Of a stretch of 52,653 nt of DNA, positions 4,168 through 14,115 are shown one piece after another (the stretch's first letter is position 1; every line of letters begins with the position of its first letter). Position numbers and translations under genes: made by a program. The notes under the pieces were generated by a model. That model was given only the letters and a program-made list of their open reading frames with translations. It had not been told where the DNA came from and did not search any database. The DNA is from a virus: UHGV virus genome UHGV-0083175. One strand, 5' to 3'.

Positions 4168-4679
4168 GCGAGATTAATTATCAGGAAGGGCATGAAACGG
4201 CAGGGCAGGCAAAACCAGTGGCATGGCGATATCGCTACGTGAAGAAAGACGTTACAGACTTTCAGGGGAAGCTGTGGGTTGGTGACTGGAAATATGTACC
4301 GACAAAAGAGGATTGCAACGACAGACCGAACTATGAAATTCAGGCCTTATTCATCGGCCCGCCAGTCCCGGTGACATCAGAAGGACTGGTTAAAGCTGTG
4401 CGCTTTTATGAACAGGTAAAGCGTGAGAATCCGCCAGTCGAAACAGGAGCATGGAAGGATGCTGTTGACTGGGTGCTCAGAGAGGCCTGCTGTGCTGCCA
4501 TTCTGGGTAAAGCCGACAATCCACCAGCATCCGGCAATCAGGTTAGCGAATTAGCAATGTGGGTTAAACGGCTGGTCAGCCAACTGAAAAAAGCGAAGCC
4601 GGACTGCAAATTACCGGATAAGGCGATGGACTACCTGAAGCGAAACGGACTGATAAACGAGGAGAATATTTTACGATGA
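4164..4679 (+). CDS. hypothetical phage protein
   Basis: 171-aa ORF, ATG overlapping the upstream stop; N-terminus MSEINYQE repeats the C-terminal motif of the DUF4406 gene. Confidence 0.45.
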   Translation: MSEINYQEGHETAGQAKPVAWRYRYVKKDVTDFQGKLWVGDWKYVPTKEDCNDRPNYEIQALFIGPPVPVTSEGLVKAVRFYEQVKRENPPVETGAWKDAVDWVLREACCAAILGKADNPPASGNQVSELAMWVKRLVSQLKKAKPDCKLPDKAMDYLKRNGLINEENILR

Positions 4680-4969
4680 CCTGGCCTGAAGCGTTCATAA
4701 CGGTAGGAATTGCAATGGCGGTGGCGCTGGTGGTGTATTCGATTTGCCGCTGGGGATAAAAACGGTTTGCGGGGAAAGAAGAGTTAAGTAGAATTGCTGC
4801 GGGTGCTTGAGGCTGTCTGCCTCGGGCATGCCGACGTAAGGCAGACAGAGAAAAGCCCCAGTTAACATTATGCGTCTTGCAGGACGCTTAACATTAATCT
4901 GAGGCCATATCTATGACTTGCACACTTAGATTAGCCTCTTATGCGCCGAAAGGCAAGGAGCAGCAGGCT

Positions 4970-5125
4970 ATGAAGCAGCAAAAGGCGATGCTAATCGCCC
5001 TGATCGTCATCTGTATTACCGTCGTTGTAACGGTACTGGTAACGAGGAAAGACCTCTGCGAGGTACGAATCCGAACCGGCCAGACGGAGGTCGCTGTCTT
5101 CACAGCTTACGAATCTGAGAAGTAA
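4970..5125 (+). CDS. hok: Hok/Gef-family membrane toxin (type I toxin)
   Basis: MKQQKAMLIALIVICITVVVTVLVTRKDLCEVRIRTGQTEVAVFTAYESEK is near-identical to HokD/RelF; internal Met of ORF 4913..5125. Confidence 0.85.
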   Translation: MKQQKAMLIALIVICITVVVTVLVTRKDLCEVRIRTGQTEVAVFTAYESEK

Positions 5126-5193
5126 GAGACCCGGCGAGGGAGAAATCCCTCGCCACCTCTGATGTGTCAGGCATCCTCAACGCACCCGCACTT

Positions 5194-5220
5194 AACCCGC
5201 TTCTGCGGGTTTTGTTTTTT
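5194..5220 (+). terminator. rho-independent terminator after hok
   Basis: AACCCGC-ttct-GCGGGTT stem-loop followed by TTGTTTTTT. Confidence 0.6.
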
Positions 5221-5273
5221 CCTGGCATTCTGGTTTACAATTCGCACGCCGGCCTGAACAACTGGCACCTGCT

Positions 5274-10195: not shown

Positions 10196-10235
10196 TATTG
10201 CAGGATTAGTTACGTACCGTTATTATCCTGCGCCC

Positions 10236-10310
10236 GGCCCTTTAGCTCAGTGGTGAGAGCGAGCGACTCATAATCGCCAGGTCGCTGGTTCAAATCCAGC
10301 AAGGCCACCA
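10236..10310 (+). tRNA. tRNA with CAU anticodon (ileX-like tRNA-Ile2/Met), acceptor stem one nt short
   Basis: Hand-folded cloverleaf: D-arm GCTC/GAGC, anticodon loop CTCATAA, T-arm GCTGG-TTCAAAT-CCAGC, 3' ACCA; 3' acceptor strand AAGGCC versus expected AAGGGCC. Confidence 0.55.
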
Positions 10311-10319
10311 TATCACATA

Positions 10320-10396
10320 CCGCCATTAGCTCATCGGGATAGAGCGCCAGCCTTCGAAGCTGGCTGCGCGGGGTTCGAGTCCTCGATGGCGGTCCA
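10320..10396 (+). tRNA. tRNA-Arg (anticodon UCG)
   Basis: Complete 77-nt cloverleaf: acceptor CCGCCAT/ATGGCGG, anticodon loop CTTCGAA, T-arm CGGGG-TTCGAGT-CCTCG, 3' TCCA. Confidence 0.8.
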
Positions 10397-10674: not shown

Positions 10675-11103
10675 ATGTATTGCCGTGCTGTACCGGTTCT
10701 TGTTTTGATATTAGCCAGTCTGACAACTGGCTGCACAAAAGATGTATCGACAAATAATTATGATGCTTCTCTGTATCACTCAGATAAATTAATAAAGTCG
10801 CAAAATTTGAGCTCATCGGAACGTACCCCTGATGCCAGTGAAGAAATCCGGCTGTATGCCATTCAGGTCAGGAAAGCCATAGAAGAACAGTTAAAGGATG
10901 CGAGTAAGTATTCAGGAAAAGAGTGTTCACTGAGAATGTATATGGCCCCGAATGGTCTTCTGCTACAGGTTAAAAGAGAAAGCGGTGATCCCGATTTATG
11001 TCGTGAAGCGATGAATGCAGTAAAGAATGCTGATATACCATCACCACCGTCTTCAGGAGTATATAAAGCATTTAGAAATGGCGTGCTGGATTTTAAACTC
11101 TGA
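10675..11103 (+). CDS. lipoprotein with TolA C-terminal domain (TolA-III) homology
   Basis: Signal peptide with lipobox LTTGC; C-terminal ~90 aa (GKECSLRMYMAPNGLLLQVKRESGDPDLCREAM...VYKAFRNGVLDFKL) align with E. coli TolA domain III. Confidence 0.7.
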   Translation: MYCRAVPVLVLILASLTTGCTKDVSTNNYDASLYHSDKLIKSQNLSSSERTPDASEEIRLYAIQVRKAIEEQLKDASKYSGKECSLRMYMAPNGLLLQVKRESGDPDLCREAMNAVKNADIPSPPSSGVYKAFRNGVLDFKL

Positions 11104-11168: not shown

Positions 11169-11560
11169 GTGTTAAATCCCTCACAATTCAGTAAGTTGAC
11201 AGTTGCCTGTCAGACTGAGCATTTGTTAAAAAAATTTCGCATGGTGAATCCCCCTGTGCGGAGGGGCGACTGGTGAACGGTATGATCTCTTTGATGATCG
11301 TAAGCGAGAATACGCGGGTTTGGTGTCACCGGGCTGAACTCACCGGGAGGCACCCGGCACCATGCTCATGGTGATACAGAAATGCGGCTTCAGCCCCTCT
11401 CCGGAGGGGCTTTCTTATGGACAAAAAAAGCCCGCGCTGGGAGACGCGGGCGGCAAGGAATAAACAATAAAACGTGAAGTAATACTTCAACTGGCGAATA
11501 ATACCCGACAGTAATCACTCTGCGCAATAGCGCGGCCTTTTTCGAATTGCGGGCTGTAGT
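11169..11560 (+). repeat. structured repeat unit A (with 3' extension shared with unit D)
   Basis: Shares with three downstream units the blocks GTGTTAAATYCCTCACAATTCA, TTGTTAAAAAA, GCATGGTGAATCCCCCTGTGCGGAGGGG, CACCGGGAGGCACCCGGCA and a terminator hairpin. Confidence 0.8.
11239..11416 (+). ncRNA. candidate small RNA, repeat copy A
   Basis: Runs from conserved GCATGGTG to terminator GCCCCTCTCCGGAGGGGC + T-run; 5' CATGGTG can pair with 3' CACCATG; two internal hairpins. Confidence 0.35.
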
Positions 11561-12892: not shown

Positions 12893-13210
12893 AACATATC
12901 CTGTATATTTATGTTGTTACATACAGGCGCTTTTAGTATCTGCCGCACGGCAGTTGTACTTTAGAATAAGATGCTTTTGTGACTGGTGGTGTTGTATCTG
13001 GGGTTAGCCAGGAGGCAGGTTCAGAGAGTCCGGTGGTAATTATGTGTATGCAGTGGTTGTTGCTGTACCGTGGGCAAGTTCTGGAACTGGCTTCGTCCAT
13101 TGTAGATGATTGTTAGCTGGATATCAGTTACCTCATGGAAATGTTAAATGACTCACAATTCGGTTGATGGACTATTGTCTGATCGATGGAAGTCTTGTAA
13201 AAACGAGCCA

Positions 13211-13377
13211 GCATAGTGAATCCCCCTGTGCGGAGGGGCGTCTGACATGGTCTCCATAGCGATGGTCACAATACGCAGATTCAGTAGTCAGGCTGAATCT
13301 ACCGGGAGGCACCCGGCACTATGCTGCTTATGGTGTATACATAGCGATCGGCCCCTCTCCGGAGGGGCTTTTTTTGT
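13211..13377 (+). ncRNA. candidate small RNA, repeat copy B
   Basis: GCATAGTG...CACTATGC long-range pairing (compensatory versus copy A), conserved hairpins, terminator GCCCCTCTCCGGAGGGGC + TTTTTTT. Confidence 0.35.
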
Positions 13378-13469
13378 GCGGGAAAAGGCTGTGTTGTTAA
13401 GTGTTAAATTCCTCACAGTTCAGATGGTTGATGCTTGCCTGTCTGAGGGGGAGTTGTTAAAAAAGTTCT

Positions 13470-13637
13470 GCATGGTGAATCCCCCTGAGCGGAGGGGCAT
13501 ATCAGCGCAGGTGTTTCTACTCTATCCTTTCTGTGCGGGTTCAGGTGCTGATACTGAACTCACCGGGAGGCACCCGGCATCATGCATATGGTTAACAGAC
13601 ACGTAGCGAAGCCCCTCTCCGGAGGGGCTTTTTTATG
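13470..13637 (+). ncRNA. candidate small RNA, repeat copy C
   Basis: GCATGGTG...CATCATGC pairing with one G-U wobble, conserved hairpins, terminator + T-run. Confidence 0.35.
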
Positions 13638-13729
13638 CAGGGAAAAGGCTGTGTTGTGAAATGTTAAATTCCTCACAATTCATGAGGTTGATGATTGTCT
13701 GATTGATGAGGAGTTTGTTAAAAAAAACG

Positions 13730-13884
13730 GCATGGTGAATCCCCCTGTGCGGAGGGGTGATATCGTATCATTTCATGTGTGGCCGACTGATATCACGGAC
13801 ATTTGTTCACCGGGAGGCACCCGGCACCTGCAGTATACAGAGATTAGGCATACATCCAGGCTCCTCATCGCAGGAGCCTTTTTA
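13730..13884 (+). ncRNA. candidate small RNA, repeat copy D
   Basis: Conserved 5' blocks; terminator replaced by compensatory variant GCTCCTCATCGCAGGAGC + TTTTT. Confidence 0.3.
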
Positions 13885-14115
13885 CATGTAAAAAAAACCG
13901 CTCCCGGGAAGAGCGGTTGGCAAGGAAGCAAGGAATAAATAACAAAACGTGAAGTAATTTATTCAGCACCCTAATAATACCTTAGAGTAATCACCTTGCG
14001 CAACTGTAAGGGCGTATTTCTTTTTTGCGGGCTGTTTTTCTGTGTGACTTTTGTGTTTCCGGAGGTCAGTCCGTGCCTTCTCTGACTCAGAACATTATCC
14101 CGGCCGGGAGGATTC

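Follow-up and report, generated by a model that had tools for sequence, protein, structure and literature searches.

The window analysed here is a 52,653-nt stretch of the virus genome UHGV-0083175, and its region 4770-5220 raises the question of whether a short toxin gene of the hok type, located in the nin region of a lambdoid prophage, stands by itself or is part of a complete type I toxin-antitoxin (TA) cassette with its own antisense RNA, Sok. The initial annotation, made from the letters of the DNA, had described a 51-aa HokD/RelF-like toxin with an in-frame upstream extension, a perfect hairpin and an intrinsic terminator, and had suggested control of the hok/mok/sok type, leaving the antisense RNA unlocated. 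We conclude with high confidence that the region holds a complete and apparently functional hok/mok/sok cassette belonging to the hokW-sokW subgroup. Every feature of the hok/sok family that can be looked for in a sequence was found at this locus, and the suggested type of control has gained support from the leader, from the mok frame and from a candidate Sok gene that could be placed by homology. The molecular mechanism is, in our judgment with comparable certainty, the classical one of hok/sok.

Toxin gene, mok frame and leader

The toxin gene (4970-5125, +) encodes a peptide of 51 aa, MKQQKAMLIALIVICITVVVTVLVTRKDLCEVRIRTGQTEVAVFTAYESEK, and has the Shine-Dalgarno (SD) sequence AAGGAG at 4955-4960. 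The initial assignment to the Hok toxins is confirmed by Pfam PF01848 (HOK_GEF; 81.2 bits, cut-off 22, E 3.9e-23) and by PHROG 251, "MokW-like host killing" (E 2.6e-32), while the NCBIfam Hok subfamily, a model built on R1-type proteins, gave 51 bits, under its 73-bit cut-off. The peptide is identical to HokW at 46 of 51 positions (90%), to HokD-type proteins at about 90%, to the hokC-type at 82% and to R1 Hok at 23 residues (45%). The upstream extension noticed before proved to be mok: from the ATG at 4913, 19 codons upstream of hok, a frame of 70 codons (4913-5125, +) runs in frame with the toxin gene to a common stop, and its length equals that of the annotated mokW of phage 933W. The mok SD is GAGG at 4901-4904, and the mok start lies inside the Sok target.

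The leader (4801-4975, +, 175 nt) matches the Rfam family RF01794 with 113.3 bits (E 1.7e-26, gathering score 59). This family is named "sok" but describes the sense-strand hok leader, since the model ends at the hok AUG. For comparison, the hokW locus of 933W scores 113.5 bits and the R1-type IncF plasmid locus 87.2 bits; no second hok locus at or above the Rfam threshold appeared across the whole 52.6-kb window. The full-length hok (mok-hok) mRNA would extend over about 420 nt (4801-5221, +), with a 5' end placed from the start of the Rfam model and from the alignment to the R1-type and 933W loci, and a 3' end given by the intrinsic terminator. The latter had been recognized initially and consists of a 7-bp GC-rich stem (5194-5211) followed by a T-run (5194-5221, +).

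Predicted alternative folds of the hok mRNA

In the model worked out for plasmid R1, the full-length mRNA is closed by a stem between the tac and fbi elements, with the ucb element over the mok SD, and tac is held in a transient hairpin in the nascent RNA (PMC9841398). The processing of the mRNA at its 3' end, the cleavage of the duplex by RNase III and the toxicity to the membrane are also known for R1 (PMC9841398). All these RNA elements have counterparts in the window. The tac element, GGGUGCUUGAGG, is found at 4801-4812 (+) and is predicted to pair with fbi in the full-length RNA, with ucb in fragments of 60-175 nt and with 4819-4832 in the first 35 nt. The fbi element, CCUCAACGCACCC, is found at 5175-5187 (+) and its predicted duplex with tac has -19.8 kcal/mol. 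The ucb or anti-SD box, AAGCCCC (4853-4859, +), can pair with either the mok SD region or tac and is invariant in the alignment of homologues described below. The perfect hairpin that had attracted attention initially (4813-4848, +; CTGTCTGCCTCGGGCATGCCGACGTAAGGCAGACAG), made of a 10-bp stem (4813-4822 with 4839-4848) that carries a loop of 16 nt, turned out to form the apex of the conserved tac stem and has its homologue in CUUUCUGCC/GGCAGAAAG of R1-type hok; a repeat search extends its arms to 4802-4822 and 4839-4859. Further downstream, a hairpin that contains the mok SD and the Sok target (4901-4938, +) appears in the folds of the 140- and 175-nt fragments and in the Rfam consensus structure. 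Its stems are 4901-4905/4934-4938, in which the mok SD pairs with the dcb box, and 4909-4913/4927-4931, and its loop (4914-4926) contains CUUG at 4917-4920. Finally, a hairpin in the 3' untranslated region (UTR; 5133-5154, +) has perfect 9-bp arms and compensatory changes among homologues, and would probably protect the processed mRNA at its 3' end, by analogy with the R1 work (PMC9841398).

Folding of the hok mRNA had been proposed as a check by the initial annotation. The full-length RNA (419 nt) folds with -173.5 kcal/mol (z = -6.4 versus shuffles) into the closed state, in which 4801-4812 pairs with 5175-5187 and the ucb box, through its GCC, with the GGC of the mok SD. An open state is adopted by fragments of 60-175 nt, with a tac/ucb stem capped by the 4813-4848 hairpin and, in addition, the target hairpin. 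The first 35 nt adopt a transient (metastable) hairpin between nucleotides 1-13 and 19-32 (-21.2 kcal/mol), in which the partner of tac is the segment 4819-4832 (+). As modeled, the window RNA would reproduce each of the three published states of the R1 hok mRNA.

A way to look at the switch between these states is to enforce the tac/ucb pairing by constrained folding in RNAs of different length. In the full-length RNA the penalty for the enforced pairing is 8.4 kcal/mol. It drops to 0.3-0.9 kcal/mol for RNAs with a 3' end at 5165-5172, immediately before fbi, and amounts to 5.2 kcal/mol for one that stops at 5158; the switch is therefore expected to be released once fbi is removed. The open state comes close to isoenergetic only in RNAs that lack fbi, which is consistent with the model but does not prove it, the energetics of the switch being approximate.

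Conservation of the pairings among homologues

A genome scan with the Hok peptide provided 36 loci, 23 of which were chosen because their leader could be recognised and their 3' UTR was intact. With the window and 933W added, they made up an alignment of 25 rows (MAFFT), onto which the full-length structure of the window was mapped. Standard pairs are formed by 85.1% of the cells, versus 38-48% when the partners are slid by one to three columns, and 36 pairs have changed on both sides, versus 12-21 in the slid controls and 25.4 in shuffles (36 was reached in 0 of 500). By helix, the paired cells amount to 92% for tac/fbi (helix 1), 96% for the 4813-4848 hairpin (helix 2, with three pairs changed on both sides), 88% for the hairpin of the Sok stem and 96% for the hairpin of the 3' UTR (helix 17). 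MAFFT had misaligned the fbi of Photorhabdus, which lacks the bulge, and the tac/fbi pairing was therefore recomputed on the unaligned sequences. The duplex was then found in all 25 homologues as well as in the R1-type locus, with energies from -15.8 to -26 kcal/mol, and with compensatory changes such as GGGUGC/GCACCC to GGGCGC/GCGCCC and GAGG/CCUC to GAGA/UCUC (U-A to C-G and G-C to A-U, respectively). Homologues from five genera thus support the states of the hok mRNA by covariation, and the sequence elements, the predicted alternative pairings and their covariation are what the analysis shows directly. Along these lines, the folding pathway published for R1 holds, according to the comparative data, across loci of Escherichia, Kluyvera, Photorhabdus and Pantoea.

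The mok frame is also recurrent. The initial annotation had made its proposal depend in part on a mok-like overlapping frame; this is present in the window, and among the 25 homologues an ATG is found 6-10 nt 3' of a conserved GAGG in 23, of which 22 open a frame of 55-70 codons that crosses the hok start, either in frame 0 or in +1. This variation of frame fits the published conclusion that what counts is the translation of mok and not the Mok protein.

A few matches came from unexpected organisms. Near-identical hok sequences of the E. coli type were found on very short contigs assigned to Acinetobacter idrijaensis (275 bp, L015) and Xanthomonas pisi (431 bp, L024), and a match with 92% identity in a record named Actinobacillus phage vB_Apl-pPE4 (H7). 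These records likely reflect contamination of assemblies or mislabelling instead of a true host range.

The predicted Sok antisense RNA and the putative promoters

The antisense RNA that had remained unlocated was to be sought, according to the initial annotation, on the minus strand, and a candidate is indeed found there. The sokW of 933W, annotated as a 71-nt RNA, can be placed at 4921->4851 of the window (4851-4921, -), since the alignment with 933W is free of gaps through that part. The predicted Sok RNA, GCAAGUCAUAGAUAUGGCCUCAGAUUAAUGUUAAGCGUCCUGCAAGACGCAUAAUGUUAACUGGGGCUUUU, begins with the 5' tail GCAAGUCAUAGAUAU and finishes with the 3' end GGGGCUUUU; it would fold into a single-stranded 5' tail of 15 nt, a long hairpin and a U-run (-27.6 kcal/mol, z = -5.1). 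Its putative promoter (4928-4956, -) has a -35 hexamer TTGCCT (4956-4951), a spacer of 17 nt and a -10 hexamer TAATCT (4933-4928) that ends 6 nt ahead of the Sok start. At the level of sequence, then, the locus has a cis-encoded Sok with candidate promoter, 5' tail and terminator hairpin. The same layout of -35, spacer of 17-18 nt and -10 recurs in the homologues of Escherichia, Kluyvera, Photorhabdus and Pantoea that could be parsed (in three hokC-type rows the script had chosen the wrong TTG, and the -35 TTGACC was read by eye), and the sok promoter of the R1-type plasmid reads TTGCGC, 17 nt, TATCCT. On the other strand, a putative weak hok promoter (4767-4794, +) is made up of TTGCGG (4767-4772), a 16-nt spacer and TAGAAT (4789-4794), with a start near G4801. 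A TAnAAT-like hexamer is found in most homologues, typically 6-7 nt upstream of a conserved GGG start, and is weaker in several of them (for example TAAGAT, TAGACT or TACACT).

The closest experimental data come from phage Sp5 (Takada et al., 2021; PMC8621323), where northern blots probed for the homologous segment revealed SokW, and HokW was toxic and located at the inner membrane. The "pro-less" primers used in that work (YO-421/422) replace the -10 of the homologous sok (TAACCT), which unleashed the toxicity of HokW, an effect that was partly reversed by SokW provided in trans (PMC8621323). RNase III was partly required, and the nature of the smaller hokW RNAs as 3'-processed forms was left open (PMC8621323).

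The least conserved segment of the leader is the target of the Sok tail with the loop (4907-4927, alignment columns ~107-131), where column identity within the close clade is 0.64-0.71, versus 0.87-0.95 in the flanking segments. Those E. coli genomes that have a match carry it at a median of 2 places, with a maximum of 10, and the divergence of the target suggests a specificity between paralogues residing in the same cell, each Sok being directed to its own hok mRNA. A GC-rich insertion of 16-18 nt (GCGUCUUGCAGGACGC; 4872-4887, +; alignment columns 73-92) lengthens the Sok hairpin at its tip. Of the 25 homologues, 13 have it, namely those of the phage hokW-type, of Kluyvera and of an unclassified Enterobacteriaceae isolate, and absent from the hokC-type, Pseudocitrobacter, Photorhabdus, Pantoea and R1-type loci.

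Proposed mechanism and role in the phage life cycle

By homology with hok/sok of plasmid R1, a weak promoter would give rise to a stable hok mRNA of ~420 nt. While this RNA is nascent, the tac box at its 5' end would be kept in the transient hairpin; in the complete RNA, tac would pair with fbi and ucb would lie over the ribosome-binding site of mok, permitting neither translation nor the binding of Sok. Slow trimming from the 3' end would then eliminate fbi, after which tac and ucb would pair and leave the mok start and the Sok-target hairpin exposed. The unstable 71-nt Sok, produced from the convergent promoter, would pair with the exposed region, block the translation of mok and, coupled to it, of hok, and lead to the destruction of the duplex. 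Once the synthesis of Sok stops, the pool of processed mRNA would be translated and the 51-aa Hok would damage the inner membrane. It is by homology that transcription, processing, toxicity and a role for the phage may be ascribed to the cassette of the window.

A phage-borne member has been tested directly only in Sp5, in which SokW vanishes after RecA-dependent induction, HokW appears about 1 h before the endolysin, and the release of phage is halved without the cassette (PMC8621323). By analogy, the most likely role in our phage would be to help lysis after induction, as hokW-sokW does in Sp5, and/or to kill the cells that lose the prophage. Addiction to the prophage, and abortive infection directed at lytic phages, are plausible roles too.

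Several observations weigh against this interpretation of the locus. The role proposed in the phage comes by extrapolation from a paralogue located at a different position of its own phage genome. We had expected the open tac/ucb state to be the minimum-energy state of the truncated mRNA, and the folds did not bear this out: RNAs truncated at the 3' end keep the closed/transient 5' hairpin, by a margin of 0.3-5.2 kcal/mol. The conservation of the sok promoter is confounded, the -35 overlapping the SD of hok and the spacer the dcb box. Moreover, a generic sigma-70 scan of both strands between 4600 and 5400 recovered no promoter. Both promoters, which are weak matches to the consensus (3-4 of 6 positions per hexamer), rest on homology because that scan flagged neither, and that of sok escaped it because its -10 fits the consensus at only 3 of 6 positions.

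A different emphasis within the same mechanism is that the main role is anti-phage abortive infection, with addiction and lysis help being secondary. A lytic superinfection that halts host transcription would let Sok decay, and Hok would kill the cell. Defence genes are frequent in the accessory regions of prophages. According to work cited in PMC8621323, hok/sok of R1 lowers the plating of T4 by 42% and its plaque size by ~85% when present on a high-copy plasmid, but the only test of a phage-borne cassette found a positive effect on the release of the carrier phage itself (PMC8621323), and the sequence does not discriminate between the roles. We consider this emphasis unlikely, if still a serious candidate.

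Somewhat more doubtful is the idea that the recurrent, co-oriented placement in the nin region wires the cassette as a sensor of induction. Transcription from pR, antiterminated by N, would read through the cassette, ignoring the hok terminator, and run head-on into the sok promoter, so that the level of Sok would drop and Hok would be produced at an early lytic stage. Without induction, or without N, the terminator of the cassette would act as a nin-region terminator that keeps the expression of Q dependent on N. The 27-aa membrane peptide gene linked to the cassette (see below) could be a further part of a transferable unit. The same placement and orientation are found in phages mEp460_ev081, PPompW_132418 and Tritos, in which the cassette is annotated as MokW, as the gef "phage maintenance protein" or as a HokD toxin.

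It is very improbable that the locus is an inactive relic, right-looking in sequence but having lost the ability to kill. Decay does occur in this family. In E. coli K-12, several of the hok loci on the chromosome were reportedly found by Pedersen and Gerdes, in 1999, to be disabled by insertion sequences (ISs) or point mutations. Our scan also found relatives with a mutated tac (L006), a frameshifted Hok (L032) and a replaced 3' UTR (L013), and a mobile element is annotated at or beside the locus in several phage homologues (H1-H4). The window cassette, in contrast, is colinear with the functional hokW-sokW, has no insertion and keeps its open reading frames (ORFs) open; a relic is unlikely because all the elements are intact, and the tac/fbi duplex is at full strength (-19.8 kcal/mol). 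Furthermore, the locus is retained unchanged in many genomes: ten complete E. coli genomes among the matches listed, mostly named or typed as Shiga toxin-producing E. coli, have the 451-nt region with 100% identity, and 27 records have it with at least 99%. Over 10 kb the best complete E. coli genome has 97% identity at 93% coverage, and none is identical.

Least credible of all is a HokD/RelF-type toxin expressed within the early-right operon without antisense control, the hairpin being an unrelated terminator or structure, because the ~90% identity of Hok with HokD-type proteins and the co-orientation of the gene with its early neighbours are outweighed by the lack of tac, ucb and mok in true hokD loci (L007, L019), by the 113 bits of the window leader, and by a hairpin that covaries as part of the leader (helix 2) and has no T-run after it.

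Genomic context

Upstream of the cassette the window encodes a YdaT, a DnaT-like replication protein, a lambda-P-like protein, a DUF1627 and a DUF4406 protein, and downstream a DUF968 protein, RusA and the antiterminator Q. The setting is the nin region, as initially proposed, of what is here a lambdoid E. coli prophage, with the cassette co-oriented with the replication genes and Q.

At the left edge of the block shared with 933W there is an ORF for a hydrophobic peptide of 27 aa (4676-4759, +; MTWPEAFITVGIAMAVALVVYSICRWG), whose ATG overlaps the stop of an upstream ORF of 171 aa (ATGA). It is precisely from this ATG that the sequence is homologous to 933W, as far as ~5189, the genes upstream being unrelated. 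The peptide has tblastn matches in 88 phage records (63-96% identity), some of them near the left end of the record and apparently away from hok, and a weak PHROG match (phrog_4612, E 0.009). It may lie outside the TA mechanism.

Among the phage homologues, four Escherichia phage records (H1-H4) have a "mobile element protein" annotated under the hok match. In vB_EcoM-606R7 the match is split in two over a span of 1046 bp, which points to an insertion, perhaps of an IS.

Farther downstream, after Q and a DNA methylase, the window has genes for tRNA-Met(cat) and tRNA-Arg(tcg) (10235-10396, +), followed by an ORF of 142 aa (10675-11103, +) whose product has the C-terminal domain of TolA (Pfam, E 4.6e-22). 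This position corresponds to the stx2 site in the related prophage of NZ_CP027584 (Stx2a); just after the tRNAs there is no ORF of at least 90 aa besides the TolA-like one, the search for stx having been confined to that part of the window. Four copies of the Rfam small-RNA family STnc100 (RF02076; 119-172 bits, gathering score 47) are found on the plus strand at 11210-11422, 13182-13377, 13441-13640 and 13702-13889, three of them near-tandem and downstream of the Q/tRNA region.

Relation to known systems

The type of element, its occurrence in lambdoid phages and its position in the nin region are all on record already, and in this respect the find is an ordinary one. The hok/sok cassettes of lambdoid and Stx phages have been annotated under various names (gef, MokW, HokD, "phage maintenance protein") and one of them has been characterised experimentally, leaving little that is new here. 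What may be useful are the coordinates, since the identical copy in RefSeq NZ_CP027584 is annotated only as a "Hok/Gef family protein", without mok, Sok or the 27-aa ORF.

One resemblance outside the family was dropped. The Rfam model of the Hfq-binding small RNA IsrK (RF01394) matches 5134-5215 (+), which comprises the 3' hairpin, fbi and the terminator, with 29.3 bits, under the gathering score of 50. A derivation of IsrK from a hok 3' end was considered; no hok is annotated in the Gifsy-1 record, and the paper on IsrK does not mention hok. The isrK gene, which we take to lie between STM2616 and STM2617 of Gifsy-1, would be just downstream of Q, where the Gifsy-1 record has that interval. 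The resemblance is probably a generic likeness of a hairpin plus terminator.

Of the label HokD/RelF-like given initially, the part that concerns the protein stands and the part that concerns the locus does not. HokD (RelF), encoded in the relBEF operon of prophage Qin, is ~90% identical to the window Hok, whereas in the K-12-type hokD loci (L007, L019) the DNA upstream of the gene is unrelated and lacks the tac/ucb/mok/sok leader, all elements of which the window has. The chromosomal loci of the hokC (gef)/mokC/sokC type (L011, L014) share the architecture, including an in-frame mok, but their leaders lack the GC-rich insertion of the Sok hairpin.

The hok/mok/sok (parB) locus of R1/IncF plasmids belongs to the same Rfam family and has all the named elements in the order seen in the window: tac, apical hairpin, ucb, Sok hairpin, mok SD/target hairpin, sok promoter, hok, 3' hairpin and fbi. 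In both loci the sok promoter overlaps the hok SD. The window differs from R1 in the 16-18-nt GC-rich insertion of the Sok hairpin, in a one-base bulge of fbi, and in being carried by a phage instead of a plasmid.

The closest relative is hokW/mokW/sokW of 933W, with 88.5% DNA identity over 418 nt and an annotated 71-nt "SokW antisense RNA"; hokW-sokW of the near-identical Sakai phage Sp5 (VT2-Sakai) is a working type I TA system (PMC8621323). Both the window and 933W have a 70-codon in-frame mok, an antisense span of 71 nt, the extra GC-rich tip of the Sok hairpin and the 27-aa ORF upstream. In 933W, however, the cassette is located at the right end of the genome, beyond the ~8.4-kb ORF L0134 (hypothetical) and on the strand opposite to it. 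There are many differences in the 5' tail of Sok and in its target (GCAAGUCAUAGAUAU in the window, GUUCAGCAUGGAUUG in 933W), and the terminator region 3' of fbi is unrelated. Judged by its sequence, the cassette of the window represents an allele of its own in the hokW-sokW subgroup.

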